Positions 2,430 to 35,281 of a stretch of DNA of 44,077 nucleotides are shown here, one piece after another (position 1 is the first letter of the stretch; each line of letters opens with the position of its first letter). A program made the position numbers and the translations under genes. Below the pieces are notes generated by a model. The model worked only from the letters and a program-made list of their open reading frames with translations. It had not been told where the DNA came from and searched no databases. Source of the stretch: an uncultured Candidatus Saccharibacteria bacterium (GTDB lineage: Bacteria; Patescibacteriota; Minisyncoccia; Minisyncoccales; 2-12-FULL-40-12). The stretch lies in the NCBI GenBank assembly GCA_964372865.1, contig CAYJRW010000001.1:1-44077 (forward strand). The letters run 5' to 3'.

Positions 2430-3428
2430 TTATGACTTCTTGACTTGATACTTACCCTCCAGGGTCTTTGAAAAATAGTCCTTATTGCTCAAGTTGAGCA
2501 AAATGGTATCTCTTTTCACCAGCCGCTGTTTGAAAACATTGTCTATGAGATCTTCTTTGGACAAAGGCCTCTTAGCTTCCCTTAAAATATCTGAGATTAC
2601 GTCTTTAACATCGCCATCTTTGTATCCCCAGTCTCGCAGGGCGTAAAGGCCCCTGCCCACCAAAACAAACCTTGGGTCGCGAATCAGTTCATTGTGAACT
2701 GTCTGAACTAAGGCATCTGGACCTATTGCCCTGGCCACTTCTCTAAAATGTAATGGTTTTCCTGCTTTCTTTAAAGCCAAGAAGGCCTTGTCTTTAATGC
2801 TTTTGGGATTTATCTCTGGCCAATCTTTCAAGCCAAAAAGGCCTTCAGAGTTTTTCTGAATTATTTTTGAAATTTCTAAAAAGTGTTCCAATACCCCTGA
2901 AGACACGTTAACAGGCGGCTTGAAATCTGCAAGAGTTAAGGCCTGATTGCCTTCCGCCAATTTTTCATAAAAAGAGTTAATAACTTTTTTGGCCCTGTCA
3001 AAAGAATTTGGATTAACGGTCCAGACAGAGTGGAACTCTTCTGTTTCGGAAAATCGCCTAAAGGGCTCTGCCAGTGTCAACAAAAAGAAAACCTGGCGCT
3101 GATATTTTTCTTTGCCCAAATGAGAAAGTAAAATTTCCTCTTTTCTCAGATCGCCGGTATTTTTAAGATGGTCTGTAAAATACTTTACGATTTTCTGATA
3201 TTTTTTCATCTTGGGCTCAATTTTTGAAAGCCCGTCTCTTTCAATCTGCCTGACCCTCTCTCTTGTTATGCCAAAGTCATGGCCAATTAACTCTAAAGTT
3301 TCCCTCTTTTGGGTGTCAAAACCAAAACGTCTCCAAAGGACTTCTCTTTGTCTTTCCGGCAAATCGCTTAAAATTTCCGAACAAACTTTTGTATAATCAA
3401 ACATTTTAATAAATTGAAAACTTATCAA
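2430..3428 (-). CDS. Sigma-70 region-4-like HTH protein with two C-terminal HARE-HTH-like winged-helix modules
   Basis: 332 aa. LPERQREVLWRRFGFDTQKRETLELIGHDFGITRERVRQIERDGLSKI is a classic sigma region 4.2 HTH. KPLHFREVARAIG...RFVLVGRGLYALRDWGY and RPLSKEDLIDNV...FSKTLEGKYQVK resemble HARE-HTH. No sigma region 2 is visible. The start may be the Met 8 codons downstream. Confidence 0.7.
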   Translation of the reverse strand: MISFQFIKMFDYTKVCSEILSDLPERQREVLWRRFGFDTQKRETLELIGHDFGITRERVRQIERDGLSKIEPKMKKYQKIVKYFTDHLKNTGDLRKEEILLSHLGKEKYQRQVFFLLTLAEPFRRFSETEEFHSVWTVNPNSFDRAKKVINSFYEKLAEGNQALTLADFKPPVNVSSGVLEHFLEISKIIQKNSEGLFGLKDWPEINPKSIKDKAFLALKKAGKPLHFREVARAIGPDALVQTVHNELIRDPRFVLVGRGLYALRDWGYKDGDVKDVISDILREAKRPLSKEDLIDNVFKQRLVKRDTILLNLSNKDYFSKTLEGKYQVKKS

Positions 3429-3468
3429 AAGGTGAAACGAATCCTTGATTCGTTGAACATATTATATT

Positions 3469-3499: not shown

Positions 3500-4378
3500 T
3501 TATTTTCTTAATCTTTGCCAGACGATCAAAATAGGGCCTGCTAAAAATATTGAAGAATAGGTGCCAAAAGAAATTCCCAGAATTAAAGCTAGAGCAAAAT
3601 ATTTTAAAACATCTCCGCCAATAAAGAAAATAAATATCAAAGGAAACAAAGTGGTCAAAGAAGTGTTTAACTGACGCCCGAGAGTTTGGTTTATGGAAAA
3701 ATTTACAGTATCTTCAAAAGAAATTACTGCTCTTCTTAAAAGGTTCTCTCTTACTCTGTCAAAAACCACCACCACATTATTGATTGCGTAACCAACAACG
3801 GTCAAGAGCGCAATTATAACCGGTGTAGTTATCTGAACATTATAAATGTTCCCCAAAACTGAAAAAATGCCCAGAGGCATTAAAACATCGTGAGAAAGTA
3901 TAATTAAAGAAACTATTCCCCATTGCCAAGATTTAACCGGTCTTGAAACTTGGCGGAAAGCCAAAGCAATGTAAAGGGTTATAGCAATCAGGGACAAAAC
4001 TATAACAATTCTGGTTTTTTGCTTTAATTCCCGACCAATTGTGGGACCTACTGATTCAAAACGCACTTCCTGAATCCCTCCCAGTTTCTCTAAAATAGTT
4101 TGGTGGGTCTCCTCTGAAACCTCTCTCATTCTTAGAATTACTCCATTTTCTCTTGTTGGTTGAACAGAAATTTCGCCCAATCCCAGGCCGGAGAGCTCTT
4201 GTTTGATTTCTTGAACCTGGGGCCTGTCTTTTGCGTATTCCAATTCCAAAATACTTCCACCTGTAAAATCAATTCCAGGCCTCAGGCCAAAGAAAAACAG
4301 AGAAATTATGCTTGCCAACAGCAAAATCCCCGAAAAAGCAAGGTATATTTTGTAATATTTTACTATTTCCACAGCCAT
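3500..4378 (-). CDS. secF: Protein translocase subunit SecF
   Basis: 292 aa with the GIDFTGG motif and multiple TM segments. It overlaps the secD 3' end by 16 nt. Confidence 0.9.
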   Translation of the reverse strand: MAVEIVKYYKIYLAFSGILLLASIISLFFFGLRPGIDFTGGSILELEYAKDRPQVQEIKQELSGLGLGEISVQPTRENGVILRMREVSEETHQTILEKLGGIQEVRFESVGPTIGRELKQKTRIVIVLSLIAITLYIALAFRQVSRPVKSWQWGIVSLIILSHDVLMPLGIFSVLGNIYNVQITTPVIIALLTVVGYAINNVVVVFDRVRENLLRRAVISFEDTVNFSINQTLGRQLNTSLTTLFPLIFIFFIGGDVLKYFALALILGISFGTYSSIFLAGPILIVWQRLRK

Positions 4379-6288: not shown

Positions 6289-6666
6289 TTATATTTCTTC
6301 TAATGAATAAACGTCAATAACTGGTTCTTCGTAGGGATGAACTTTTTTAATCGCTTCCACCACCGCCCCCACTTTATCCATCTCACACTCAACTTCAATT
6401 CGTTCCTCGGCCACTGCCTCAAATTCCCCAACCTTTCCAATATAAGGATGAGCTCCTTTCTCTGTCTTCCATCTACCAATCCCTTTTGAAGAAAAACTAA
6501 CGAATGTGTAATTGCCTATTTTCCCGACACCAGCTTTTCCCATGGCTTCTCTGATTTTATCAGCATCTGTCTCCGGCGCAAAAACAACTATTTTTACTTT
6601 GGTCGAAGAAAGCAAGCTTTTTTCTCCCCCCTTCGCTAAAGCTCGATGTTTTGATTTATTTGCCAT
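6289..6666 (-). CDS. Stand-alone NIF3/YqfO insert-domain-like (PII-like fold, COG3323-type) protein
   Basis: 125 aa. KIVVFAPETDADKIREAMGKAGVGKIGNYTFVSFSSKGIGRW...HPYEEPVIDVYSL matches the conserved pattern of the NIF3 insert domain. Confidence 0.6.
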   Translation of the reverse strand: MANKSKHRALAKGGEKSLLSSTKVKIVVFAPETDADKIREAMGKAGVGKIGNYTFVSFSSKGIGRWKTEKGAHPYIGKVGEFEAVAEERIEVECEMDKVGAVVEAIKKVHPYEEPVIDVYSLEEI

Positions 6667-10538: not shown

Positions 10539-11071
10539 TATAATTTATTAATTTCTTCCTGAATATGCCAGGCAAAATAACCTTTGTATTTCTTTTGCAA
10601 CTCAAGATTCTTCCAGTCCTCTCCCGTAATAAACTTTCTGCAATTTTTTTCTTGACAGCGACATTTAAAGTAAATGCCGGGGTCATTGTCTGTCATGGCA
10701 TAGTCAAAAGTTAGTTCCTCATCCTTAAGAATATTGCGCATTGCCACAAACAAATTGCCTTTTACGCCAACATTGGGGCGACAACTGTGGTTCAAGTAAT
10801 CATCATCTTTGAGTGTTTTTTTGCTAAAGTGGGCTAAATAAAAACTTGGAGCTATTTTAAATAAATACTCTTTTAAGACCTTATATCGTTTTTTGGGAAG
10901 ATTTTTTGGGTTGCTTAAAATTTCTTTTTCTCCAACTATGTATCCTCCGGGAATGGCAATTATTTCACTTTTTTTAATGAGTTCTTTGGCAAACAATCCT
11001 TTTCTATGGATGGCAGAAGTCCCTGCTTTTACCTTTGGGTTAATATAGGGATTAATGTAAGAATGACCCAT
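10538..11071 (-). CDS. SET-domain methyltransferase with a post-SET Cys cluster
   Basis: 177 aa with RKGLFA, NHSCRPN, EELTFDY and CRCQEKNCR. Confidence 0.88.
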   Translation of the reverse strand: MGHSYINPYINPKVKAGTSAIHRKGLFAKELIKKSEIIAIPGGYIVGEKEILSNPKNLPKKRYKVLKEYLFKIAPSFYLAHFSKKTLKDDDYLNHSCRPNVGVKGNLFVAMRNILKDEELTFDYAMTDNDPGIYFKCRCQEKNCRKFITGEDWKNLELQKKYKGYFAWHIQEEINKL

Positions 11072-11080
11072 AAATCAAGT

Positions 11081-11947
11081 TTATTGCTTTTTGGTAATCT
11101 CTTTTAGAAAAGGCGGCAGGGTAAAAATTGCTTTAAACATTTCCGGGCTGAGGTATTTCAGCTTTCGCTCCAAATCTTTGTTCTTGAACTCCGTTTTCAG
11201 CGGGTTGAAGTTTTTGTTTGCGGAAGCTATCAGAAAACCCCAATAACCGCCAAAAAAACTAATGCAGGCGCGGTAAGAAAAAACTTTTGGGAAAACTTTT
11301 TTCAATATTTTTTTCAGGCGAAGGTGGCCCTGGTAACTGACTTCGCTGAAATTGTTGCTGTGCATTGCTAAAATGCCGTCTTTTTTAAGATTCTGGCGGA
11401 TAAGTTTGTAAAAATAGGTTTCCGGTTTCTTTATTTTAGAGCTGAGGTTGTAGTAGCCGGGGTCAGAGATGTCTGAGTAAATGACATCATACTTTTTTTG
11501 GCTTCTTAATAAAAAGTTTTCAGCGCTGTCTATAATTAAGTCAACTTTCGGGTGGTCAAAAAATCCTTGGTGCATCTCGGGAAAAAATTGCTTGAAAATT
11601 TTTACTGCTTCTCTGTCAATATCAATGGTCGTGATTCGCTTTACGTTTTTGTGCTTTAAAATTTCGCGAAGAGTCGCTCCCTCTCCCGCTCCCAAAACCA
11701 GGATTTGTAAATTTTTCTTCTTAGTCAGCAAAATCAAAGCGGGGTGAATCAGCGCCTCGTGGTAAATCCATTCTTCTTTAACGCAGCTCTGGGGAATTCC
11801 GTCAATAACCAAACTTTTACCAACCTCAAACAAATCGAAAATCTGGATATCCTGGAACTTTGTTTTTTTGTGAAATAAGAGTTTTTTTACCCGCCAATGC
11901 ACTTGAGAGTTGGGAACGTATGTATCAACATACCACTGCCGTTTCAT
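11081..11947 (-). CDS. Spermidine synthase-like aminopropyltransferase, divergent paralogue 2
   Basis: 288 aa with LGAGEGATLREILKH, TTIDID and DVIYSDISDP. It has a 4 nt overlap with the AdoMetDC gene. Confidence 0.8.
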   Translation of the reverse strand: MKRQWYVDTYVPNSQVHWRVKKLLFHKKTKFQDIQIFDLFEVGKSLVIDGIPQSCVKEEWIYHEALIHPALILLTKKKNLQILVLGAGEGATLREILKHKNVKRITTIDIDREAVKIFKQFFPEMHQGFFDHPKVDLIIDSAENFLLRSQKKYDVIYSDISDPGYYNLSSKIKKPETYFYKLIRQNLKKDGILAMHSNNFSEVSYQGHLRLKKILKKVFPKVFSYRACISFFGGYWGFLIASANKNFNPLKTEFKNKDLERKLKYLSPEMFKAIFTLPPFLKEITKKQ

Positions 11948-17329: not shown

Positions 17330-17719
17330 TTAGGTTGGTTCAGCCGGCGGTTTTCTACCGCTTCCCACAGTTTTTCTGACGTTTCCGCGAACAGTCCTGG
17401 TATTTGTTCTTGTCCGCTGTCCCCTGACTGGCAAACCTTTGAGGTGGCGAAGTCCTCTCCAGCTGCCTATGTCTTTTATTCGCTTGATATTCATTATTAT
17501 TTCCCTGCGCAGTTCGCCTTCTATTTTATATTTTTTTTCTATAATTTCTTTCAAGTTGTTGGTCTCATTTGATGTTAAGTCCTTGGCAAGTTTTTGTGGG
17601 TTGATTTCCGCCTCAACCAAAATTCTCCTACTCAAAGGCAGGCCTATTCCATATATAAAAGTCAAAGCAATCACTATTGGTTTTTGGTCGGGGATGTTGA
17701 CCCCAGCTATCCTTGGCAT
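17330..17719 (-). CDS. rpsM: 30S ribosomal protein S13
   Basis: 129 aa: [10 protein letters not shown]...[23 protein letters not shown]. Confidence 0.96.
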
Positions 17720-17723
17720 AGAT

Positions 17724-17837
17724 TTAACCTTGGCGCTGTTTATGCTTTGGATTTTTGCAAATCACATAAACTCGTCCTTTTCTTCGGACGATTTTGCAAT
17801 TTTTGCATAATTTTTTTACAGAAGGCCTTACTTTCAT
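17724..17837 (-). CDS. rpmJ: 50S ribosomal protein L36 (zinc type)
   Basis: Too short for the ORF track. Manual translation gives [37 protein letters not shown], then a stop. Confidence 0.93.
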
Positions 17838-17870: not shown

Positions 17871-17935
17871 GCGGTCGCTGAGGCTTTGGCTCATCTCCCG
17901 CCTCGTTTCGCTTTGCGAAACTCGCTGAGCGACGC
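17871..17935. repeat. GC-rich structured core element, copy 1 (infA-rpmJ spacer); sequence homologue of 34509-34574
   Basis: Plus strand: GCGGTCGC-TGAGGCTTTGGCTCA-TCTCCCGCC-TCGT-TTCGCTTTGCGAA-ACTCGCTGAGCGACGC. It has two internal hairpins and a closing helix GCG(G)TCGC/GCGACGC. It is conspicuously GC-rich against an AT-rich background. Confidence 0.7.
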
Positions 17936-17973: not shown

Positions 17974-18195
17974 TCATTTTCCCCTATACACTATTCTGCC
18001 TCTATTTTCATCATATGGCGTCATCTCAACAGTCACTCTGTCCCCCGGCAAAATCTTAATCCTGTAAATTCTTAATTTCCCTGCCAGATGGCACAGAACT
18101 TCTTTTCCGTCATCTAATTTCACCCGAAAATTGGCATTGGGCAGTGTCTCCAAAACCAGGCCTTGTTTTCTAAGAAATTTTTTTTCCACAAGCAA
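17974..18195 (-). CDS. infA: Translation initiation factor IF-1
   Basis: 73 aa: [51 protein letters not shown]. Confidence 0.96.
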
Positions 18196-18225: not shown

Positions 18226-19494
18226 TTAGTCAACCGCCGAGGCTATGGGCTCGGGGTGAGAAGAGCGAAGCTCTGCGAACATCAAGTCTATCTTTATTCT
18301 ATCAAATGTATTGGGCAGACTTTTCAACCAGAAGGGGAACACTTTGATTTCAGCTCTTGAGAACTCTTCTTTATCAGCCAGGAGTATTTTTGCTTCAAAC
18401 AAGGGCTTTGCCACCAGACCCCGTTTTAATGAGTCTAAATCAAGTGTAGGATAAATTTTGGTAAAAACAGATAGGGAAAGCAAAAACTCGCCCGACTCCT
18501 GGTTAAAGGACTCAACCTGGTATTCTGTTCTGGTGCCTTGAGGGTGGAAATTTTTGCCCTCAGGGATCCGGGAAGCGACTGATAGACGAGAGAATTCTTC
18601 AAGGTCTTTCAGCTCAAAAGATACGACAGGCAATTTCGTTTTCACCAGAAATTCAAATTTCTCCGCCTCATCTCCTTCTTTGGCAGAAGAGCTTTTTTCA
18701 AGAATATTCTGTTTGTCTGGCTGAGCCAAAATGACAAACCCGTCGGGAGTTTTTCTTCTTAATTCTTCCTCTGCCTCTTTTTTAGCTTTTTCAACTAACA
18801 TATTCTCTGCCTTTTCCAAATCCTCTTTTAAGACCTTGGCAACCTGGCCTCCGCCTGTCATGGGTTCAGAGGACTCCCCGTAATATTTGGTGTATCTGGC
18901 AGTTCCCAAAAAAGCTGCTATTGAAAAATTAGAAGGCCCTATGTTATACTCTGGACCTGCTTCAGCGGCTACAACCTGAACATCAACAAAAGAGGGAGCA
19001 ATTCTGCCATTCTTTAGGGTGGTTCCTGGAACAGTTATTCTGTTTTTTGAAAAAAACAATTTTCCTTCAGAGGAAACAAATCTGGTTCCCTGAAGCCAGG
19101 TCTCGGTCCCAGTCGTAAATGAGTTGTAAAGGCGGATTGTGCCTTCTGCTTTTTTTAGGGAAATGCCCGTTGCTTGAAATTCTTCTGACAAAATCTTTTC
19201 TATCTCAAAAATTTTTCCCGGAATCACTTTTGAAGATAAATCATGCCTGCCAGCTTTCGTGTCAACAGCCACTCTTTCAGTAAGCAAGAAGGGTTCAGTT
19301 TGAGGCCATATTTTAATTTCTGCTTTAGAAAAGAAAAAATGTAAAGAGAAAAATGTGAGAATTGAAATCAATAAAACCGCTGTCAGAAGGTGTTTCCAAA
19401 TACTCCGCCTTGTTTCCTGTTTTTGTCGCTTAAGTTTTTGCGCAGGCCTGATTTTAGATTTTGGCGGGAAAATATCAATAATCTTTTTTGCCAT
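18226..19494 (-). CDS. Hypothetical bitopic membrane protein (one N-terminal TM, large beta-rich ectodomain), partner of the upstream actin-like ATPase
   Basis: 422 aa with a basic N-terminus MAKKIIDIFPPKSKIRP and the TM segment LLTAVLLISILTFFSLHFFF. It overlaps the upstream gene by 20 nt. Confidence 0.7.
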   Translation of the reverse strand: MAKKIIDIFPPKSKIRPAQKLKRQKQETRRSIWKHLLTAVLLISILTFFSLHFFFSKAEIKIWPQTEPFLLTERVAVDTKAGRHDLSSKVIPGKIFEIEKILSEEFQATGISLKKAEGTIRLYNSFTTGTETWLQGTRFVSSEGKLFFSKNRITVPGTTLKNGRIAPSFVDVQVVAAEAGPEYNIGPSNFSIAAFLGTARYTKYYGESSEPMTGGGQVAKVLKEDLEKAENMLVEKAKKEAEEELRRKTPDGFVILAQPDKQNILEKSSSAKEGDEAEKFEFLVKTKLPVVSFELKDLEEFSRLSVASRIPEGKNFHPQGTRTEYQVESFNQESGEFLLSLSVFTKIYPTLDLDSLKRGLVAKPLFEAKILLADKEEFSRAEIKVFPFWLKSLPNTFDRIKIDLMFAELRSSHPEPIASAVD

Positions 19495-20512
19495 AGTATG
19501 TTGATATTAACAAAGCGGGGGCAAATTGCGGGCTTTTTAAAATTTTTACTTGGGGCCTCTTTTCAGAAAAAGCGATATTACCCCACTGCCCCTCTTTTAA
19601 AATTTCTTTGATTTCCGGAAGTAAGCTTGCCCCGCCAAAAAGAATAATGTTCGACGGGAAGAGACCTGACTCTTTTATCTCTTTTAATTTTGCCTTCAGG
19701 TTTTCAAACCACGCTCTTTGCGGAAAATAAAGCATTTCTTTAAGTCGGCGGGAGGACTCCGGCGTCAACTCGTTTTTGGCATATTTTTCCTTGAAAATTC
19801 TAGCATCTTTTTCCCTTAAACCCAGTTTTTCTGAGATCGTCTGTGAGAAAATTTTTCCACCCATGCCAAACTCGCCAATTCCTTGCAATTTCCCATTTTT
19901 TGTTAAAAAAATCTGAGTTGTCTCGCCCCCGACATCAAGAAAAATACCGTCGGCCTCGCCCGAAAGTTGCGAAAGCTGACCCTCTGCTGCATGCACTATC
20001 TTTTTGTTTTTAATGCCAGCTTTCTGGCAGAGCCAGTCAATTTCCTTCAGGTGATATTCTGACAAAAAATAGGCAAATAATCTAAAGATCAGATTTTCCC
20101 CTTCGTACTTTTGGAGAGTCGGAACTTCGTAGCCGTCAATCAGCATTTCTGTAGTCCTTATGTTAACAATCCTGAGGTCTTTTCGCAAAATTCCCAAATC
20201 GTGGCTGAAAATGCGGGAAATCTCTTCTTTTGCCCTCTGCAAAACAATCTGATATATCTTTTCCTCTTCTTTTTTGTCAATTATCCTTTTGGGGTTTTCT
20301 CTTTCAAATGTTTCAGAGACAATTCTGCCTTTCAAAATATCTGCAGGCAACACTAAAATGACATTGTCAGCTGTTATATTAAGCTCTTTTAAAGCCCCAC
20401 TAAGCGCAGCAAAGCGGTTCTCGGGCGTATCGTAATCATCAAAATACTGCAAAGAGCGCTTTTCCCCTGCCAGAATTTTTACCGCCTCGTTGCCAATATC
20501 TAAAACAATCAT
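19475..20512 (-). CDS. Actin-like ASKHA ATPase, FtsA/PilM family (short form)
   Basis: 345 aa with MIVLDIGNEAVK (phosphate 1), IFLDVGGETTQIF (phosphate 2) and IILFGGASLLPEI (adenosine). Confidence 0.75.
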   Translation of the reverse strand: MIVLDIGNEAVKILAGEKRSLQYFDDYDTPENRFAALSGALKELNITADNVILVLPADILKGRIVSETFERENPKRIIDKKEEEKIYQIVLQRAKEEISRIFSHDLGILRKDLRIVNIRTTEMLIDGYEVPTLQKYEGENLIFRLFAYFLSEYHLKEIDWLCQKAGIKNKKIVHAAEGQLSQLSGEADGIFLDVGGETTQIFLTKNGKLQGIGEFGMGGKIFSQTISEKLGLREKDARIFKEKYAKNELTPESSRRLKEMLYFPQRAWFENLKAKLKEIKESGLFPSNIILFGGASLLPEIKEILKEGQWGNIAFSEKRPQVKILKSPQFAPALLISTYYGKKDY

Positions 20513-20521
20513 CGATTTCTA

Positions 20522-22252
20522 TTATAACACAACTGCCCGGATTCTCCTTACTCCTGCTCCTACCGCCTCTTCTTTAGTAATTTTAAAAATGCCCGCTTCA
20601 GAAGTCCTTTTAACGTGAGGCCCGCCACAGAACTCCTTGGAAAAATCACCCATGGAATACACCTTAACTTTTGGGGGATATTTTTCTTTGAAGAACCAAA
20701 GCGCTCCGGTCTTTTTTGCTTCCTCAATCGGCAGTTCCACAAATGACACCACTAGATCCTCCTTAATTTTTTTGTTCACCAAATCCTCAACTTTTTTAAC
20801 CTCCTCGGGAGTAAGTTTGCGAGAAAAAGTAAAATCAAAACGCGTTCGCTCAACCGTAATGTCAGAACCGTCCTGCTGAACTTCCGGGCCGAGAACAGCC
20901 CTCAAGGCCGCATGGAGAAGATGAGTGGCGGTATGAAGGCGTGTTACCTTTTCAAGTTCGGACTTATCTTTAACAGTAACTTCTCCTGTTTTCAGATAAA
21001 TGCCGTGTCCGCCGAATTTAGCAACCGCCCCCGCACGGGAAATTTCCTGGTGTTTTTTAAATTCTTCATCAAAGACGGCGCGAGTTAAGTTATCTGTTTT
21101 TTCTCCGCCAAATTCTTTTATTAGTTCAAAGGGCAGACCATAACTTTCATAAATCCTAAATGCCGTCTGACCGTCAATTTTATCCAGTTTTTTTATTTCG
21201 CGCAATCCATTCTTAAACGCTGAACCAAATCTCCGCCGTTCTTCATCAAAGACATTAAAAATTGTATCTTTATCCAGTTCTGGATATACGGGTTTATATA
21301 CTTTTAAGACGGCGTCCAAAACATTTTTCAAATCTGTTTCTATACCCATTGGAAGCGTATCCAAGCCGGCCAAAGAAGTTCCCTGTTTAAGATGTATGTG
21401 GACAATAACGCGTCGCAAAATACGTCGCAGTATATAACCAGCGTCTTTGTTAGATGGACGCACTCCATCAGAAATAAGAAAGGCGATTGCCCGAGCATGG
21501 TCGGCAATAATACGATTTATCTTTTCATCTTCCCAAGCAGTCGGCAGAGCTTGTATCAATGGTGCAAATAAATCTGTTTCAAAAATATTTTTCTTTCCCT
21601 GCGCTACCATCGCAAGTCGTTCCAGTCCCATTCCCGTATCTACTCCATTTTGCTTAAGCTTTTCCATAGTTTTGTCGGGCTTGCAATAATATTCGTTAAA
21701 CACAATGTTCCAAATTTCAACTCCTCTTACATAAATCTCTGTAGTTGGACCGCAGGGGCCTTCGTTTCCAGTTGGACCCCAGAAATTGTCTTCTCTCCCC
21801 CGCTTCTCAATCTTAGTGATTCCTAAATCTTTCCATATTTTTTCTGATTCGTTGTCAGAGGAGACCTCGCTATCACCTCCGAAAACAGTTACATATTCTA
21901 TCGGTAAATTTATCTCTTTGAAAAAATCGTAGGCATACTCAATCGCTTCTTTTTTGAAATAACCGCCGAAAGAAAAATTCCCCAGCATTTCAAAAAACGT
22001 ATCATGGGATTCATCGCCAACTTCGTCAATATCGGAAGTTCTGAAGGACTTTTGCACAGACGCCGTATTTTTTGTGCCGAAATCTTTTTGCGCGTCCGCT
22101 TCGCCCATGTAATACTTTTTGAATTGCTGCATGCCAGCCGTAGTTAAAAGAACCGAGGGGTCATCGGGTAAAAGCGAAGAAGAAGGCACAATTTTGTGCC
22201 CGTTTTTCTCAAAAAAATTCAGAAACGCTTGCCGCAATTCTTTTGAAGTCAT
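20522..22252 (-). CDS. alaS: Alanine--tRNA ligase, truncated architecture (catalytic plus editing domains, no C-Ala domain)
   Basis: The start is trimmed to MTSKELRQAFLNFFEKNGH (576 aa). The editing motifs HTATHLLHAALR and CGGPHV are present. The protein ends at GVRRIRAVVL. Confidence 0.92.
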   Translation of the reverse strand: MTSKELRQAFLNFFEKNGHKIVPSSSLLPDDPSVLLTTAGMQQFKKYYMGEADAQKDFGTKNTASVQKSFRTSDIDEVGDESHDTFFEMLGNFSFGGYFKKEAIEYAYDFFKEINLPIEYVTVFGGDSEVSSDNESEKIWKDLGITKIEKRGREDNFWGPTGNEGPCGPTTEIYVRGVEIWNIVFNEYYCKPDKTMEKLKQNGVDTGMGLERLAMVAQGKKNIFETDLFAPLIQALPTAWEDEKINRIIADHARAIAFLISDGVRPSNKDAGYILRRILRRVIVHIHLKQGTSLAGLDTLPMGIETDLKNVLDAVLKVYKPVYPELDKDTIFNVFDEERRRFGSAFKNGLREIKKLDKIDGQTAFRIYESYGLPFELIKEFGGEKTDNLTRAVFDEEFKKHQEISRAGAVAKFGGHGIYLKTGEVTVKDKSELEKVTRLHTATHLLHAALRAVLGPEVQQDGSDITVERTRFDFTFSRKLTPEEVKKVEDLVNKKIKEDLVVSFVELPIEEAKKTGALWFFKEKYPPKVKVYSMGDFSKEFCGGPHVKRTSEAGIFKITKEEAVGAGVRRIRAVVL

Positions 22253-22253
22253 A

Positions 22254-22754
22254 TCAACTATACCTATCTGCCACGCTTGAAGCGACAAAGGATTCTGGCT
22301 TTATTTTCGGCTCAAAGCCGTTGCCTCTAATCAAACCCGTAACCTCTCGTATCATATCTTTTGTAGCGCCTGACTCTCCAATGTCAGCGTGTATATAGCG
22401 GAACTGGTAGTTGGCGCCAGGATTCGCCTCTTTTTCAAAATTTTCTCTCAAAAACAGGGCCATCTCGCAAGAAAGCATAACTTCTTCCAAAATTCTGGTT
22501 TTCCAGCTGTAAAATTTCCTGTTTTTGTAGCTGATTCTTTTTAAGAAAAATCTGCCTCCCTCACCCTTTCTCAAAACAACTACGGCCACTGGAAAATAGG
22601 GCTCCTCACCGGAGGAAGAGTCGCAACCAACAATAATATCGTAAAACTTTTCTGGTTTTTCGTTGATGTAACCAAAAATTTCCTCAATCACTTGAGAAAA
22701 GTTTATGTTCCCGCGCGTCGGGTTGTAAAAATAACCTTCTAAAAAATTACTCAT
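22254..22754 (-). CDS. YkuK-like RNase H-fold protein (DUF458-like)
   Basis: 166 aa: YDIIVGCDSS...PVAVVVLRKGEGGRFF...IHADIGESGATKDMI...PESFVASSVADRYS. Confidence 0.6.
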   Translation of the reverse strand: MSNFLEGYFYNPTRGNINFSQVIEEIFGYINEKPEKFYDIIVGCDSSSGEEPYFPVAVVVLRKGEGGRFFLKRISYKNRKFYSWKTRILEEVMLSCEMALFLRENFEKEANPGANYQFRYIHADIGESGATKDMIREVTGLIRGNGFEPKIKPESFVASSVADRYS

Positions 22755-22879
22755 CTACCAAATTTTTACGAAGTAAAAATGAAGGTGTTGATAAAGCGAA
22801 CTCCTCAGGAGGCAAACTTCATCACACATTACATCATACATCCTTTCTCAAACAAAATCAATCTTTTACAAAAAAACGC

Positions 22880-23113
22880 TTACTCTTTCCTATTTTTGAA
22901 TAATTTCCCCAAAATCTCAACAAAGTTGACCCTGTCCACCACCACCTCGCCCAAAAAAGCAAAGGGTACGGCAATCAAGACAATAATACCAAAAACGTAC
23001 CAGGTTATTGCAGCTCCTGTGGTCACTTTCACAGCAATGATGTCTTCAATAACGCCTATAATTATGCCAAAACACAAAAACTCCAAAAAAACTTCCAATC
23101 TTTTTAAATCCAT
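22880..23113 (-). CDS. Small hypothetical membrane protein (two hydrophobic segments)
   Basis: 77 aa. It sits co-directionally in the gap after msrB, 6 nt from the msrB stop. Confidence 0.5.
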   Translation of the reverse strand: MDLKRLEVFLEFLCFGIIIGVIEDIIAVKVTTGAAITWYVFGIIVLIAVPFAFLGEVVVDRVNFVEILGKLFKNRKE

Positions 23114-23119
23114 ATCTTT

Positions 23120-23527
23120 TTAATTTTTAGCATCTTTGCTTTCAAACTGCAAACAAACAGAATTAATGCAATATCTCTTGCCTCCTTTTTCTTTAGGGCC
23201 GTCGTCAAACACATGCCCCAAGTGAGAACCACATTTTTTGCAAAGCACCTCTGTGCGATTCATACCCTCACTTGTATCTGGCTTCAATTCAATATTATCC
23301 AGATTTACAGGGATAGTAAAACTCGGCCAACCAGTACCAGAATCAAACTTGGCATCTGAAGAAAAAAGCTCCTCGCCACAGGCTGCGCATTTGTACCTTC
23401 CCTTATCTTTGGTGTGAACGTATTTGCCTGAAAAAGGGAGCTCCGTGCCCGCCTCACGCATTACTTGATACTGCTCGGAGGTGAGTTTATCTCTCCACTC
23501 CTCTTTGGTATTTGGAATATTGTTCAT
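23120..23527 (-). CDS. msrB: Peptide-methionine (R)-S-oxide reductase MsrB
   Basis: 135 aa with CAACGEELF and CKKCGSHLGHVFDDGP...RYCINS. Confidence 0.95.
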   Translation of the reverse strand: MNNIPNTKEEWRDKLTSEQYQVMREAGTELPFSGKYVHTKDKGRYKCAACGEELFSSDAKFDSGTGWPSFTIPVNLDNIELKPDTSEGMNRTEVLCKKCGSHLGHVFDDGPKEKGGKRYCINSVCLQFESKDAKN

Positions 23528-24063
23528 CTCAGTTTTGCACGGAACAATTTTTTAATTTTGTCAATTTTGGGATCAATGATAACTTTGCAGTATTTTTCCT
23601 CTGGATTTTTATTGTAATAGTTCTGGTAATGCTCTTTGGCTGGATAAAAATTGTTATAAGGCAGTATTTTTGTTGCAATCGGTTCATCGTAAACTTTCCC
23701 ATCTTCAAGCTCTTTTTTTGAATTAATCGCAAGCTCTTTTTGCCCCTCTGTGTGATAAAAAATCGCAGCTGTATATTGAGAACCCGTGTCAGCTCCTTGT
23801 CCCCCTTTTTGTGTGGGGTTGTGCGAAACCCAGAAAACTTCAAGCAAATCTCTGTAACTTATCTCTTTTGGGTCATACTCAATTTGCACTGCTTCCCTAT
23901 GCCCTGTTTTGCCGCTTGAAACTTGGTTATACGTGGGATTTTCAACGTCTCCGCCTGAGTAACCGGTCGTAACTGATTTAACACCCTTTAGCATGCGGAA
24001 AACAGCGTCCTGGCACCAAAAACATCCGCCTGCAAAAGTCGCTTTCTCAAGTTTAGTTGCCAC
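23524..24063 (-). CDS. msrA: Peptide-methionine (S)-S-oxide reductase MsrA
   Basis: 179 aa with the GGCFWC active site. It has a 4 nt overlap with msrB. Confidence 0.95.
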   Translation of the reverse strand: MATKLEKATFAGGCFWCQDAVFRMLKGVKSVTTGYSGGDVENPTYNQVSSGKTGHREAVQIEYDPKEISYRDLLEVFWVSHNPTQKGGQGADTGSQYTAAIFYHTEGQKELAINSKKELEDGKVYDEPIATKILPYNNFYPAKEHYQNYYNKNPEEKYCKVIIDPKIDKIKKLFRAKLR

Positions 24064-24074
24064 AAAAGTGTATT

Positions 24075-24686
24075 CTACCTTGTGCTGTAGAACTCTAAAG
24101 AATTAATAAAATCTCTAAATATTTCCTCGGTTAAGTCAGGGCTATAGGCAAAAGGATAAAACAAGCTAGGGCTGCTTTTGGCAAGACGAATATCAATCGC
24201 TTTGTGTTTTTTATTTCTCCAGCTCGGCTGCTGAGGAAAATCCGGAAATTCTGTTTTTTTGGCGATTTCATATAATACCGCTTCATGGCCATTTACTAAA
24301 ATTTCCTCTCTTTTTAAGACATCTACTGTGTTTAAAGTCAAAAATCTGTCTGATTCAAAATAAGTTATGTAAATTTGAGATTTTTCTCTGATATTATCTC
24401 CTGGGAGCGTAGCGTCGTATATGCTAATGGCTTTGAGTTGAGGAATGTATTCCATTTCAAATTTTACGGGAATGTTGCCGGAAAATCGAAAAGAAGAATT
24501 GAACTCTGAAAAATCTATTCTCTTAAAGTCCGCCGACTCTTCTTCTTGAACCTCGCTTCTTCCCTCTATTTTCTCTTCTGCGGGGCTTGAAACTTTATCT
24601 TTTTTCAAAAATAAAAAATAACCAAGAGCGCCTGAAACAATGATAATGGTTAAGATAACGACAACTTTAACTAATTTATTTAGCAT
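24075..24686 (-). CDS. Hypothetical protein with an N-terminal signal anchor
   Basis: 203 aa with KVVVILTIIIVSGALGYFLFL. I recognise no motif. Confidence 0.6.
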   Translation of the reverse strand: MLNKLVKVVVILTIIIVSGALGYFLFLKKDKVSSPAEEKIEGRSEVQEEESADFKRIDFSEFNSSFRFSGNIPVKFEMEYIPQLKAISIYDATLPGDNIREKSQIYITYFESDRFLTLNTVDVLKREEILVNGHEAVLYEIAKKTEFPDFPQQPSWRNKKHKAIDIRLAKSSPSLFYPFAYSPDLTEEIFRDFINSLEFYSTR

Positions 24687-25452
24687 TTCCTCCTCCGCAT
24701 GTTTTTACTGTTTTAATAAATTCTCTGGCCCTTAAGGAGGCTGCACCCACTAGTACTCCATCCATTTTAGCTTCCTTAATAAATCCACCTATGTTCTTAC
24801 TGTCCACACTTCCCCCATAAATAACTCTTATTCTTTGGCCAAAATTTTTCCCAAACAATTTAACTAAGACTTTTCTTATAAAATTCGCTCCTTCTCTCGC
24901 TTCTTTTGGAGTGGCTATCTTCCTTCCTTTAGTTGTGCTTATTGCCCAGATAGGTTCGTAAGCGATAATCAGATTTTCAGTGTTTGGTTTTTTAATTCCT
25001 AACAGAGCTTTTTCTAATTGGATTTGAATTTTTTTAAATTCTTTTTTTTGGTCTCTATCTTCACTTCCAACGCAAAGAATTGATTTCAAGCCTATATCTA
25101 AAACTGCCCCTAATTTTTTATTGACCATTTCATCGGTTTCATTTAGGTTTCTTCTTCTTTCTGAGTGTCCAATAATTATATACTCCACACCTAAATCTTT
25201 TAACATTGCTGTTGAAATTTCACCAGTAAAGGCGCCTTTTCCCTCCCAGAAACAATCTTGTGAGCCAAATTTAGGGTTTAGGGTATAGGGTTTAGGATTT
25301 AGTAAATAAGGTATATAGACAAATGGCGGGCAGATAACAACTACAACTTTTTTTATATTCCTTACTCCTCTTGCTACCAAATTAAAAAGCAGCTTAGCTT
25401 TAGCCAGGGCTTGAGGATTCATCTTCCAGTTTGCAACGATTAAAGGCTTCAT
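24676..25452 (-). CDS. tpiA: Triosephosphate isomerase
   Basis: 258 aa with ANWKMN, GAFTGEIS, IIGHSERR, YEPIWAI and YGGSV. Confidence 0.94.
   Translation of the reverse strand: MKPLIVANWKMNPQALAKAKLLFNLVARGVRNIKKVVVVICPPFVYIPYLLNPKPYTLNPKFGSQDCFWEGKGAFTGEISTAMLKDLGVEYIIIGHSERRRNLNETDEMVNKKLGAVLDIGLKSILCVGSEDRDQKKEFKKIQIQLEKALLGIKKPNTENLIIAYEPIWAISTTKGRKIATPKEAREGANFIRKVLVKLFGKNFGQRIRVIYGGSVDSKNIGGFIKEAKMDGVLVGAASLRAREFIKTVKTCGGGNAK
25270..25304. repeat. Heptanucleotide tandem tract TTTAGGG-like (5 units) inside tpiA
   Basis: The plus strand reads tttaggg tttaggg tataggg tttagga tttagta. On the minus strand it encodes LNPKPYTLNPK. Confidence 0.8.
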
Positions 25453-26435
25453 CTCTGTTTTCTCAAATATGCGGCGGCTCTCTCTGGCTCAATGGTGGAA
25501 ATTTCCATTCTGGTTCCTATTTCAAAACCGGCCCAGGCGGATGTCTTTGGCAAAATAGTCCAGTGCCAGTGGTAATAAGGGCATGTCCTGCCGTCGCAAG
25601 GCGCAGTATGAAGATAAAAATTGTAAGCAGGGTCTGCCAAAGCCCTGTAAAGCTTCTTTAAGGCTGTCTGAAGAGCTTCGGCCAGATGCCATTTTTCATT
25701 TTCAGTTATATCTTCAAAATAAACCAAGTGTTTTTTAGGAGAGATAATCATTTCAAAAGCGGCTTTTGAAGCAAAGGGGCAGATAACCAAAAAACCCTCG
25801 TTTTCAAAAACTACTCTTTTTTTGACTTTCCGCTCCCAGCTATTCATTTCGCAATAAATACACTTTCCAGTTTTTAAAAAATATCTCCCGGAATTTGTGA
25901 GGGCTTTTCTTAAATCGGTGTCAACCAGAGGAGTGGTGATGATTTGAGAGTGGGGGTGGGAAATTGAGGCGCCTGCTTCTTTTCCGTGATTGTGAAAAAT
26001 GGAGACATAATGCACGAACTTTTCTTTTATCAACTGCAAGTATCTTTGATGATATGCGTCCATCACTTCTTTTACTTTTGCTGTGGAAAATTGAGCCAGT
26101 GATTTTTTGTGGTCGCGGGTCACCACCACTTCGTGAAAACCTACGGCGTTTATCGTCTGGTAAAATCTGCCTTCAACTCTTTTGTGTAATTCGTCATGAG
26201 GGGTGAAAGCAGGGTATTTGTTTGGCATAACAATGGTATTTGGCAAGACAAGGGTCGGTTTTTCACCTGTACCGAGGTTGCAAAAAGGGCAATCTTTTTT
26301 GGGAATCTCCTCTCTTATCCTTTTTTCTTGTTTGAAGGTTTCGGGACGTCTTGCGCGACCCGTCGCAATAACAACCCAATCTTTGGAAATGAGGTCAAAA
26401 CGAAGCTCTGAAGGAAATTTTATTTTTTTAGTCAT
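25449..26435 (-). CDS. galT: Galactose-1-phosphate uridylyltransferase (HIT superfamily)
   Basis: 328 aa with the CPFC zinc site and HPHSQII. It has a 4 nt overlap with tpiA. Confidence 0.85.
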   Translation of the reverse strand: MTKKIKFPSELRFDLISKDWVVIATGRARRPETFKQEKRIREEIPKKDCPFCNLGTGEKPTLVLPNTIVMPNKYPAFTPHDELHKRVEGRFYQTINAVGFHEVVVTRDHKKSLAQFSTAKVKEVMDAYHQRYLQLIKEKFVHYVSIFHNHGKEAGASISHPHSQIITTPLVDTDLRKALTNSGRYFLKTGKCIYCEMNSWERKVKKRVVFENEGFLVICPFASKAAFEMIISPKKHLVYFEDITENEKWHLAEALQTALKKLYRALADPAYNFYLHTAPCDGRTCPYYHWHWTILPKTSAWAGFEIGTRMEISTIEPERAAAYLRKQR

Positions 26436-26453
26436 ACAGCAAGTTTTAATTTA

Positions 26454-27200
26454 TTAAAACGAAGCTCTTGATGAAACTTTAGCTTCGTCATACTTTTTTT
26501 TAATGAAATTCAGCTTAATCTTGATTAAATCAAGAGCCATTTTAGTCATTGAGTCAAATTGAACCTTGCTGTCTGGGTCATTTTTCCAGTGAACCGGAAT
26601 TTCTTTTATTTTACAGCCAAATTTTTTTCCCAGCAACAGGATTTCCGGGTCAAAAGCGAATTGATTGATTTTGGCTTTCGGAAAAATATCTTGAGCCGCT
26701 TTTGCTGAAAAAGCTTTGAAGCCGCATTGAGTGTCTTGAATTTCCCAAAGGCCAATAATTATTTTTCTATATATTTTGAAAAAAAATCCAACCAATCTTC
26801 TGAACCAGGATTGCCTCGGGTCCAGAACAGCTCCTTTTATGTCTCTTGAACCAATAACTATGTCGTATCCATTTTCAAACTCAGGCCACATTTTTTCAAC
26901 CTGCTCAACTGAAGTTGAATTATCGGCATCGGTAAAAATTCTGAAGTCGCCCTGAGCAGAAAGCATTCCTTCTTTTACAGCATGGCCTTTTCCAAGCCCA
27001 TCAATCTCAATTAATTTCAAATTCTTAATTTCTCTTTGCTTTTCTTTAACAATTTCTCTAGTTCTGTCTTTTGACCCCCCGTCAACAACAATAATTTCTG
27101 ATTCATAAGCCTGCTTTTTTAAATAATTATCAACATCTTCCAAAGTTCTTAGAATCCTCTTTTCCTCATTGTAAGCAGGAATAATGACTGAGAAATGCAT
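26454..27200 (-). CDS. Family 2 glycosyltransferase (polyprenol-phosphate hexosyltransferase-like)
   Basis: 248 aa with SVIIPAYNEE, VVDGGSKDRT, TDADNS and QCGFKAF. Confidence 0.85.
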   Translation of the reverse strand: MHFSVIIPAYNEEKRILRTLEDVDNYLKKQAYESEIIVVDGGSKDRTREIVKEKQREIKNLKLIEIDGLGKGHAVKEGMLSAQGDFRIFTDADNSTSVEQVEKMWPEFENGYDIVIGSRDIKGAVLDPRQSWFRRLVGFFFKIYRKIIIGLWEIQDTQCGFKAFSAKAAQDIFPKAKINQFAFDPEILLLGKKFGCKIKEIPVHWKNDPDSKVQFDSMTKMALDLIKIKLNFIKKKYDEAKVSSRASF

Positions 27201-34069: not shown

Positions 34070-34474
34070 CTATCTTCTGATAAATTTTGTTTGAACCGGC
34101 AATTTTGCTGCTGCCTTTTTAAAGGCCTCCCTTGCTTGTTCTTCAGGTATCCCCTCTAATTCAAAAATAATCCGCCCAGGTTTTATGGGGAAAACGTAAT
34201 GCGAAACAGAGCCTTTGCCCCCGCCCATTGGCACTTCTGTTCCTTTTTTCGTCACCGGTTTGTCGGGGAAAATTCTCACCCAGAGCTTTCCGCCCTTTTT
34301 TAAGTACCGGATAACTGCCCTTCTTGACGCTTCAATTTGTCTTGCAGTCAGCCATTTTGTTCCAAGGGCTTTTAACCCAAAAGCGCCAAAAGACAGCCCT
34401 GTTGAGCGCGTCTCAATGCCTCTTGACCTGCCTTTCCTCCATTTGCGATGTTTTACTTTTTTAGGAATTAACAT
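34070..34474 (-). CDS. rplP: 50S ribosomal protein L16
   Basis: 134 aa: [16 protein letters not shown]...[32 protein letters not shown]. Confidence 0.97.
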
Positions 34475-34477
34475 AAA

Positions 34478-34598
34478 CCGCGATACTAATATACTAATTA
34501 TACAAATACTCGCAGTATTAGCGAGCCCGCCAACTGGCGGACGAGCGGGAGAAGAGATTTATCTCTGCGACCGCATCAATTCATATATTGGCATCGAT
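34478..34598 (-). repeat. Composite repeat element, copy B (121 nt): the same TIR shell as 30801-30879 in inverted orientation, carrying GC-rich core copy 2 (34509-34574)
   Basis: The minus strand reads atcgatgccaatatatgaattgat (22/24 to the copy A left end) and ends agtatattagtatcgcgg (17/18 to the copy A right end). The interior is GCGGTCGC-AGAGATAAATCTCT-TCTCCCGC-TCGT-CCGCCAGTTGGCGG-GCTCGCTAATACTGCGAG. It fills the rpsC-rplP spacer. Confidence 0.8.
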
Positions 34599-35281
34599 TA
34601 GTCTAACCGTTCGCCTTTGTAAATCCACACCTTTACTCCAACTACTCCGTAAGTACAGTAGGCCTCTACCTGAGCATAATCAATATCTGAGCGAAGGGTT
34701 TGCCGAGGCAGCCGCCCTTTTTTTAACCACTCACGCCTGGCAATTTCATTTCCACCCAAACGGCCTGCCACTTCAACCCTGCAGCCCTGGACTCCTTTTT
34801 GTGCCATAATCTTATCTATAATTTGTTTCAAGACCCTTCTGTAATGAATTCTTTTTTCTATTTGTTGGGCAACCCATTGGGCAGAGAGCGTAGCCGACAC
34901 CCAGGGATTTTTAACTTCCCTGATTTCAATCCGGATTTCTTTTGCCACGGCACGAGAAGAGACGCGAGATGAGGCAGGGGCTTTAACTGACTTGTCAGCT
35001 GTCAAAGTATTTTCCAGTGCCTTTTTTAGCTCTTCCACTCCCTGCCCTCCTCGGCCAATGATTAAACCCGGCCTTGCACTTGAAATTATGATATTGATTT
35101 TACCCGGGAATCTTTCTATTTCAATTTTCTCTATGCCAATTTTACCCAATTTCTTTTTTAAAAACTCTCTGATTCTAAAATCCTCCTCCAGATTTTGGGC
35201 AAACTTTTTGTCAACCCAGCGCGAATTCCAATCAGACAACTCTTTTGTTCTAAAAATTTTTGGGTGAACTCTGTGTGACAT
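34598..35281 (-). CDS. rpsC: 30S ribosomal protein S3
   Basis: 227 aa with the KH and S3-C motifs GLIIGRGGQGVEELKK and VAGRLGGNEIARREW. Confidence 0.96.
   Translation of the reverse strand: MSHRVHPKIFRTKELSDWNSRWVDKKFAQNLEEDFRIREFLKKKLGKIGIEKIEIERFPGKINIIISSARPGLIIGRGGQGVEELKKALENTLTADKSVKAPASSRVSSRAVAKEIRIEIREVKNPWVSATLSAQWVAQQIEKRIHYRRVLKQIIDKIMAQKGVQGCRVEVAGRLGGNEIARREWLKKGRLPRQTLRSDIDYAQVEAYCTYGVVGVKVWIYKGERLD

Follow-up and report, generated by a model that had tools for sequence, protein, structure and literature searches.

A probably mobile family of GC-rich palindromic repeats in the spacers and genes of a lineage of Patescibacteria

The DNA analyzed here is a stretch of 44,077 nt, contig CAYJRW010000001.1 (the window). 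It contains two similar GC-rich structured segments, pointed out in an earlier note, on the plus strand at 17871-17935 (segment 1) and on the minus strand at 34574-34509 (segment 2). Then, what are these segments? They are probably members of a mobile, DNA-level family of palindromic repeats, that is, non-autonomous mobile palindromes of the kind of repetitive extragenic palindromes (REPs) or Rickettsia palindromic elements (RPEs), not leaders or small RNAs. The family, high-copy and apparently undescribed, is restricted to a clade within the Patescibacteria (candidate phyla radiation, CPR). Its hairpins are kept by Watson-Crick covariation. Comparison of near-identical genomes shows gains and losses of copies, tandem duplications and nesting, and copies are found in the spacers of operons, at the ends of genes and, in frame, within essential genes, in both orientations. 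Based on these family-wide facts, copies 1 and 2 are independent insertions of one subfamily (the CGC variant) in ribosomal-operon spacers. The “compensatory” differences between them reflect hairpin maintenance at the level of the family, not an RNA evolving in place. The observation in the earlier note is confirmed, and its interpretation is partly supported.

The composite pattern GCGGTCGC-N(6-30)-TCTCCCGC matches the window exactly twice, at 17871 (+) and 34574 (-), while 0 matches were found in 100 dinucleotide-preserving shuffles of the window (0 expected), so the exact blocks reported for the two segments are indeed shared at these places. The blocks TCGT and CTCGCT are also common to both, and in the two copies alike CTCGCT stands at a distance of 19 nt from TCTCCCGC. 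The two copies are described below, with hairpins in square brackets in the layouts and scores from the covariance model R1.

Copy 1, 17871..17928, plus strand: 58 nt; antisense to the infA-rpmJ operon; 32.9 bits, E 6.8e-09.
Copy 1 layout: GCGG TCGC [TGAGGC TTT GGCTCA] TCTC CCGC C TCG [T TTCGC TTT GCGAA A] CTCGCT GAGCGACGC.
Copy 1 parts: 5' tag GCGG 17871-17874; TCGC 17875-17878; hairpin 1 stem 17877-17884 with 17888-17895; linker TCCCGCCTCG 17896-17905; hairpin 2 17906-17920; 3' block CTCGCT 17921-17926.
Copy 1 3' tail, 17929..17935, plus strand: GCGACGC; beyond the end of the family consensus, part of the segment given in the earlier note.
Copy 2, 34518..34574, minus strand: 57 nt; sense to the rpsC-rplP operon; 28.6 bits.
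Copy 2 layout: GCGG TCGC [AGAGA TAAA TCTCT] TCTC CCGC TCG [T CCGCC AGTT GGCGG G] CTCGCT AATACTGCGAG.
Copy 2 parts: tag GCGG; TCGC; hairpin 1 34568-34551; hairpin 2 34541-34526; CTCGCT 34525-34520.
Copy 2 3' tail, 34509..34517, minus strand: TACTGCGAG; small hairpin with CTCGC; outside the family consensus.

Between the copies, hairpin 2 shows compensatory change at four pairs (UUCGC/GCGAA versus CCGCC/GGCGG) and hairpin 1 at one (U-A versus A-U), as had been noted from the sequence. The neighbouring genes of both copies are all on the minus strand, and therefore copy 2 is sense and copy 1 antisense to transcription; gene coordinates and strands agree with the reported setting, one copy in the infA-rpmJ spacer and the other, oppositely oriented, in the rpsC-rplP spacer. 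In single-sequence folding copy 1 is unremarkable (z = -0.9 for the strand as given and -1.5 for its complement) and copy 2 is strong on both strands (z = -4.2 and -4.9). Copy 1 can be aligned collinearly over its full length with type II units of the family (56-61 nt), and its GC at 17900-17901 pairs with GC at 17924-17925. Its tail GCGACGC could pair with TCGC of the 5' or the 3' block; judged by its letters, this tail seems to resemble the first bases (GGCGA) of a next tandem unit, as at the junction CTCGGTAGGCGATGAG in locus L165. Both hairpins of copy 2 (GAGATAAATCTC and CCGCC..GGCGG) reappear in relatives, for example at L168:5491.

The relatives are 80 metagenome loci, of at most 20 kb each, encoding rpsC relatives (L122-L201; 700 kb, mean GC 37%), which together with the window make up 744 kb from 81 sources. 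A descriptor of the form TCGC-[hairpin]-TCTC detected a third copy in the window and five copies in the relatives, and the relaxed form CG[CA]-[WGA..TCW]-TCT gave 71 matches, against 9 in the reversed-sequence controls. A covariance-model search, the kind of check that the earlier note had proposed, was run on the window, with filters off, and on the 80 related loci. R1, which covers the core of hairpin 1 (35 positions, 8 pairs), gave 104 matches at E<0.01 over the 744 kb, scoring up to 45.7 bits and confined to about 19 of the 81 sources, and only one weak match (18.9 bits) in 766 kb of unrelated GC-rich DNA. This negative control consists of loci L002-L121, which come from a scan of reference genomes with the block pattern; that scan returned more than 120 chance matches, in high-GC genomes only. 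Four copies in the window are strong matches to the model, so that the segments described as present twice are both real but were undercounted.

No curated RNA family matches the units. With Rfam 15, the whole window had 0 matches at gathering thresholds, the infA-rpmJ and rpsC-rplP spacers gave noise only at E<=10 (known small ribozymes are included in Rfam), and eight element-dense loci gave one tRNA and nothing else; the statement that no known RNA family could be recognised therefore stands. ARAGORN found no tRNA or tmRNA in the window, the exact 23-mer of the commonest hairpin 1 had 0 matches in viral contigs, and no description of the element family was found in the literature on palindromic elements, REPs and miniature inverted-repeat transposable elements, or MITEs, in CPR/Patescibacteria.

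The family units are 45-70 nt long. The long type has 56-70 nt, and copies 1 and 2 (58 and 57 nt) are collinear with it. The consensus reads (G)TAG [T/G]CGA [WGAnn..nnTCW] TCT YCAYC TTCG [variable hairpin] CTCG[G/A]T A, and consists of a short 5' tag, commonly GTAG or nnAG, with [T/G]CG[A/C] next to it; hairpin 1, with the conserved base GAWGA/TCWTC and a variable top from a limited set of subfamilies; the linker TCT-YCAYC-TTCG; and a helix of 3 bp, in which AYC pairs with GRT from the 3' block CTCGRT, around a hairpin that is free in sequence and length. In the short type (45-48 nt) the variable hairpin is replaced by GC-TAAC-GC and the end is CTCGGGTA. The tails GCGACGC and TACTGCGAG of the two window segments fall outside this unit.

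Hairpin 1 is paired in 94% of the cells (72.7% in shuffles), with changes on both sides in five of the eight pairs and G-U in only 4 of 680 cells. The pair counts are 46:37 for U-A/A-U and 50:35 for A-U/G-C, and the next position has four pair types. Since the tops of hairpin 1 form a limited recurrent set (GAGATAAATCTC, GAAGCTAAAGCTTC, GAACTTCGTTC, GAGAACTTYGTTCTC and the long GAAGTTTGCC...GGCAAACTTC form), much of the “compensation” is subfamily identity. In the 3' domain 93% of the cells are paired (RNAalifold and pair counting), a value in which the inner hairpin, of almost any sequence, was partly selected for by the filter. No such selection applied to the outer 3-bp helix, which has C-G in 8, U-A in 6 and G-C in 3 sequences, the G-C type coming from the window copies. 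The partner of the 3' block CTCGNT is the GC of CCCGC in the middle block, and covariation of this pairing is seen family-wide. By comparison of the sequences, CCCGC/CTCGCT of the window is a compensated variant of CCATC..CTCGAT and TCACC..CTCGGT of the family. The three-helix architecture drawn in the earlier note is thus right for the two hairpins, which are kept family-wide, and wrong for the helix joining the 5' end with the 3' end. For this end-to-end closing helix the family offers only CGA/TCG (3 bp, invariant), whereas the covarying pairs lie in hairpin 1 and in the outer 3' helix between the middle block and the 3' block.

The evidence for insertion starts with copy 2. The rpsC-rplP spacer has 5-26 nt in most of the approximately 70 relatives with both genes but 123 nt in the window. 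Therefore, copy 2 is an insertion and not an ancestral leader, and the earlier opinion that this is no classical leader is upheld. Moreover, units are present or absent between contigs with 92-100% identical flanks, as follows.

rplF: filled in L129 and L131, inserts of 45 and 63 nt, respectively; empty in L136.
Triosephosphate isomerase (TIM) gene: filled in L130, insert of 54 nt; empty in L125.
rpsS 3' end: filled in L131, two 48-nt units; empty in L136.
rplV: filled in L126, insert of 99 nt (nested pair); empty in L123.
Intergenic: filled at L136 9118, L131 9763, L125 3749, L125 10725 and L136 16386, inserts of 53-70 nt; empty alleles various.

The tandem number also differs, with two 48-nt units in L129 and one in L128, and tandem periods of 42, 48 and 54 nt occur. 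An inverted unit is often nested inside another (L131 3598/3646, L126 6240), and head-to-head or nested pairs are found as well at L131 15951/15991, L168 4793/4846, L155 10868/10909 and L129 7288/7338. The units start with [T/G]CGA right after ..TAG, ..TAA or ..AAG, and end in ..CTCGG(G)TA. Relative to operon transcription, the two orientations are split 58:38 in the family and 2:2 in the window; a strict lagging-strand orientation rule of the IS200/IS605 type is ruled out by the 58:38 split. No target duplication of fixed length was seen at the filled/empty junctions, where the ambiguity is mostly 0-2 nt, and a fixed TA or GGTA duplication is inconsistent across five filled/empty pairs. The exceptional direct repeats are those of 5-12 nt in L126, a possible 9-nt repeat at L136 9118, and 42 nt in the rplC genes of L142 and L202. 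Being multi-copy, lineage-specific and polymorphic in presence, with hairpins conserved while sequences vary, the family bears out the earlier suggestion of a REP/MITE-like structured repeat.

The two rplC cases come from different lineages (L142:3487-3650 and L202:1502-1720). In each, the first 42 nt of rplC (codons 1-14) are present as two identical direct copies, one on either side of the insert; the upstream copy opens a short dead-end open reading frame (ORF) and the downstream one starts the intact gene. The native site in L202, ..GCTCAGGTA|TTTGATGAA.., resembles the tandem-unit junction ..GCTCGGGTA|GTCGATGAA.., while L142 shares the TTTGATGAA half only. In both rplC genes and in L126 rplV the insert is directly 5' of a native T(T)GATGAA. 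This likeness suggests that insertion targets element-end-like sequences, which would not by itself explain the exact 42-nt duplication.

Copies inside otherwise normal genes were identified from the translated surrounding frames. The hosts are the ribosomal proteins L22, S3, L23, L18, L6, L3 and L4, as well as a family-2 glycosyltransferase (GT2), TIM and GalT. A protein search with concatenated element peptides gave four matches at E<=10 and added phosphoglycerate kinase (PGK) and a release-factor-like (RF-like) protein, each with two in-frame units, and the second rplC case. The ribosomal operon spacers in which both noted copies sit are incidental to the window and not a defining property of the family. 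The units in L22 encode VDEAGASSSPFANARV twice, and VDELRSSSHFANARV; a typical element peptide is V/G-D/E-E-xxx-SS-x-PFA-x-AR-V, and examples of element-encoded residues are ..SSSPFANAR.. and ..LPEPQRRVEMNEVHR... Both orientations and more than one frame are used. Coding inserts have 45, 48, 54, 63, 96 or 99 nt. In every in-gene insert examined the length is divisible by 3 and the host frame stays open, whereas the intergenic inserts (53-70 nt) are not so constrained. The constraint on frame and length speaks for translation of the in-gene copies and against their excision. CGATGA of an element provides the rplP stop codon in L136 and L155.

How might such elements move? HUH/Y1 transposases of the REP-associated tyrosine transposase (RAYT) and IS200/IS605 types use hairpins with a flanking tetranucleotide and leave no fixed target duplication. 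The hairpins of the family would be needed for recognition by a trans-acting enzyme in single-stranded or cruciform DNA, and an HUH/Y1 transposase of the RAYT or IS200/IS605 type would be the best precedent for such an enzyme; that mobilisation is of the HUH/RAYT type specifically is, by analogy, conceivable but rather doubtful. New copies would be placed beside TA-containing sites or mimics of element ends (..GGTA|TYGATGAA). Inside genes, only stop-free copies of a multiple-of-3 length would survive, and these would be translated; in transcripts, the added stable hairpins may have incidental effects on mRNA stability or processing. A bolder reading, which we put forward tentatively and would not yet prefer, is that of undescribed mobile palindromes reaching up to about one copy per kb in a Patescibacteria clade assumed to be streamlined, and translated in at least a dozen essential proteins (seven of them ribosomal), with a mechanism neither MITE nor clearly REP/RAYT. 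As part of it, insertion may occur beside mimics of element-element junctions, and the second hairpin of free sequence and the recurrent 42-nt duplication in rplC would be by-products of the mechanism.

Could the hairpins instead be kept at the RNA level? A structured RNA acting in cis in operons for ribosomal proteins (leader, attenuator, or a signal for processing or stability) would fit the location of both originally noted copies in operon spacers, the many family copies that abut stop codons or sit just 5' of start codons, and the stable hairpins (copy 2, z = -4.2); REPs of other bacteria are also reported to stabilise upstream mRNA (PMC3733652). However, in contrast to ribosomal-protein operon leaders, neither position nor orientation is conserved across relatives, as seen in the short rpsC-rplP spacer of most of them and in the mixed orientations; copies occur in the coding sequences of more than 10 unrelated genes, G-U pairs are nearly lacking, and Rfam has no match. 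An origin as a cis-acting RNA is therefore improbable, although a secondary, domesticated role of the elements in the stability or processing of operon mRNA is possible. An autonomous gene for a small non-coding RNA, the other proposal of the earlier note, or else a self-cleaving ribozyme, with a three-way junction, could account for the junction-like blocks conserved between variable hairpins and for the covariation. But the copies share no promoter or terminator logic and are embedded in operons on either strand, in-frame copies lie within ORFs, tandem arrays have a 42/48/54-nt period, the closing helix shows no covariation, and the Rfam search of the spacers at E<=10 gave no relevant match, which makes this reading very hard to sustain. 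On the contrary, the two orientations, the in-frame copies in essential genes, the polymorphic alleles and the almost pure Watson-Crick pairing (4/680 G-U cells) favour recognition of DNA hairpins over selection on an RNA fold, and the idea of RNA-level selection put forward earlier is not borne out.

Yeast mitochondria contain GC clusters or “byp” elements, mobile palindromes that are rich in GC within a compact, AT-rich genome. They are present in spacers and coding sequences, and those in coding regions are bypassed by the ribosome; their hosts and sequences are unrelated to the present ones. By the same token, the in-gene copies might be intervening sequences that are excised from the RNA or bypassed in translation. 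They are GC-rich hairpins inside essential genes of an AT-rich genome, and the rplC insert is flanked by a duplicated gene start, which shows that not every insertion is simply read through. Yet an open frame and a length in multiples of 3 nt are expected for translation and unnecessary for excision, and take-off/landing codon pairs were not noticed, no systematic search for them having been made. We regard excision or bypass as quite unlikely. As for a chance resemblance of two GC-rich spacer hairpins, the block pattern does match more than 120 places in high-GC genomes, but 0 matches are expected in the window of 40% GC, the copies score 28-33 bits and are collinear over their full length with dozens of relatives, and the many family matches stand against one weak control match; chance is hardly worth considering.

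If the segments are mobile palindromes, to which known class do they come closest? REPs are GTAG-tagged and RAYT-mobilised, with intragenic copies and a preference for the 3' ends of ORFs (PMC3733652). The present family is like REPs, their mosaic arrangements (bacterial interspersed mosaic elements, BIMEs) and REPINs in that a short imperfect palindrome (hairpin 1, about 20-25 nt) reaches high copy (104 matches in 744 kb), with an unpaired motif at the hairpin foot that is GTAG in part of the copies (18 of 96), frequent inverted pairs and clusters (L131, L168, L155, L129 and L126), a preference for ORF 3' ends in co-directional operons and no fixed target duplication. Intragenic in-frame copies, occasional in REPs, make up a much higher fraction here. 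Unlike REPs, the unit is bipartite, with two hairpin domains and a conserved linker, the second hairpin being free in sequence and length; the GTAG tag occurs irregularly and is lacking in the window copies; among 20 window ORFs there is no RAYT; Patescibacteria lie outside the reported host phyla; and G-T pairs, frequent in reported REP stems, are near-absent.

RPEs and intragenic REPs are the precedents for palindromes inside genes (PMC3733652, PMC10969869). Like RPEs, which are in-frame palindromic repeats in many unrelated conserved genes of a reduced genome and add a conserved peptide (PMC10969869, PMC3733652), the units are inserted in frame in the genes of L22, S3, L23, L18, L6, L3, L4, GT2, TIM, GalT, PGK and the RF-like protein, and have intergenic copies too. 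However, RPEs are about 100-150 bp (RPE-1) or CGTC-tagged, whereas the units here have 45-70 nt and no CGTC tag, come from an unrelated phylum, have at least seven ribosomal protein hosts and form tandem in-frame arrays. The element thus works like an RPE but is not a member, and membership in the REP/RAYT or the RPE class is not established. Presumably the units and the RPEs have no recognisable motif in common.

Bacterial MITEs (Correia/NEMIS, ERIC, RUP, QMITE and Nezha) are likewise non-autonomous, multi-copy and hairpin-forming, mostly intergenic and co-transcribed with their neighbours, with in-frame fusions possible (PMC10969869). But the units lack terminal inverted repeats of 15-30 bp, their ends sharing at most TCGA/TCGA, and a target duplication of fixed length; their size is under the usual 70-300 bp, and they are GC-rich, not AT-rich, relative to the genome.

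Several facts weigh against the family being mobile palindromes of this kind. No transposase was found among the 20 window ORFs scanned against Pfam. The junctions are heterogeneous and fit no single known transposition chemistry, and the orientation bias is weak, unlike that of typical IS200/IS605 elements. GTAG precedes only 18 of the 96 distinct copies and none in the window, where the 5' tags are GCGG, GCGG, ATGT and TTGG, while most of the others have nnAG; at the rplF site, moreover, GTAG is already present in the empty allele. The copy density of 1.0-1.2 per kb in L129, L168, L128 and L155 falls to only 0.09 per kb in the window, and all loci of the relatives were sampled around rpsC, so that densities may differ genome-wide. 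Finally, we infer translation of the in-gene copies from frame and length only.

The usual picture of CPR bacteria is that their genomes are small and streamlined and contain few repeats and little mobile DNA. If the family is what it appears to be, it would be a second, independent case of the “selfish DNA inside protein-coding genes” known from Rickettsia. Its notable property is that a candidate-phylum lineage has its ribosomal protein genes colonised in the manner of RPEs. Such elements can break assemblies and gene calls, as exemplified in the window by the yqfO start and the C-terminus of a 422-aa ORF (see below), and apparent protein “insertions” would be inflated in the ribosomal marker genes used for phylogeny. 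On the other hand, they could serve as polymorphic markers for strain tracking and offer a tractable route to the enzyme by which such palindromes are moved.

The other features of the window, together with the neighbouring genes, are as follows.

Copy 3, 18229..18282, minus strand: sense; from the descriptor search; 28.4 bits (match 18250-18282).
Copy 4, 6599..6648, plus strand: short type; antisense; 31.1 bits (match 6599-6634); outside the training set.
Weak candidate, 3426..3460, minus strand: spacer between ORFs 3500-4378 and 2430-3428; 14.4 bits, E 0.019; not relied on.
Possible relic in rpsC, 34937..35002, minus strand: codons 94-115 (TADKSVKAPASSRVSSRAVAKE); below the model threshold.
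infA, 17974..18195, minus strand: upstream neighbour of copy 1; by translation.
rpmJ, 17724..17837, minus strand: 37-aa product; downstream neighbour of copy 1; infA-rpmJ spacer 136 nt.
rpsM, 17330-17719, minus strand: by translation.
rpsC, 34598..35281, minus strand: upstream of copy 2; Pfam KH_2 and Ribosomal_S3_C.
rplP, 34070..34474, minus strand: downstream of copy 2; rpsC-rplP spacer 123 nt.

The spans matched by the model in copies 1 and 2 are 17871-17905 (+) and 34541-34574 (-), respectively. Copy 3 makes up the last 19 codons of the 422-aa ORF at 18226-19494, which reads ..MFAELRSSHPEPIASAVD*. Copy 4 (TTGG TCGA AGAAAGCAAGCTTTTTT CT CCCCCC TTCGCT AAA GCTCGA TG) overlaps the 5' end of yqfO; the public gene call of 108 aa starts at a TTG within hairpin 1, and yqfO homologues have 106-108 aa, without the first 17 residues of the 125-aa ORF. 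The weak candidate at 3426-3460 has an AT-rich ATGTTCAACGAATCAAGGATTCGTTTCACCTTTTG resembling copy 3 and may be a decayed copy. In the closest relative, L122, a clear in-gene copy (32.1 bits) occupies the position of the stretch in rpsC, and a codon alignment gives GCCTCATCTC.CG.CTC in common; the window stretch is possibly a decayed homologue of that copy. At 11670-11693, AGAGTCGC-TCCC-TCTCCCGCTCCC matches the flanking blocks but has no hairpin, and is most likely a chance match; it falls in a glycine-rich (GSGRGS) coding stretch of ORF 11081-11947, which we take to be a nucleotide-binding loop.

Exact protein matches of the window rpsC and infA were to the source contig only. The rpsC homologues are annotated as Patescibacteria or Candidatus Nealsonbacteria, the closest being 78% identical, and the names found for homologues of the window proteins are Patescibacteria, Nealsonbacteria, Wolfebacteria and Paceibacterota. 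Between map and infA, about 9 kb of non-ribosomal genes (18226-27200) split the usual spc/alpha operon order. These encode a GT2 glycosyltransferase, GalT/HIT, TIM, MsrA, MsrB, an RNase H-like protein, alanyl-tRNA synthetase (AlaRS), an FtsA-like protein and the 422-aa protein, which has a weak GlxA barrel match. The GT2-GalT-TIM block is syntenic with L125, L130 and L131.

Some spacers of the relatives (L155:924-1155 and 10827-11123; L136:1248-1387 and 11176-11312) are packed with three to five elements of mixed orientation and different subfamilies, and a third subtype, GTTCGA..TCTCTCGCC..ATTCGGGCAG, is present among these clusters. In the rpsC-rplP spacer of other relatives, unrelated long palindromes or tandem repeats are found at L138:3564-3691, L147:978-1061, L152:3300-3379, L182:10442-10635, L183:4111-4419 and L196:767-916 (= L199:10726-10875), and repeats of several kinds appear to have landed in this spacer again and again. 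In L182 it holds an array of the CCCTCCCCTGTC type, after which come five copies of CCATAATTAGTAT. The window spacer at 34483-34504, downstream of copy 2, contains TGTATAATTAGTATATTAGTAT, of which ATAATTAGTAT also occurs in a 13-nt tandem repeat of the L182 spacer; either another small family of repeats or a conserved motif in front of rplP could be present here.

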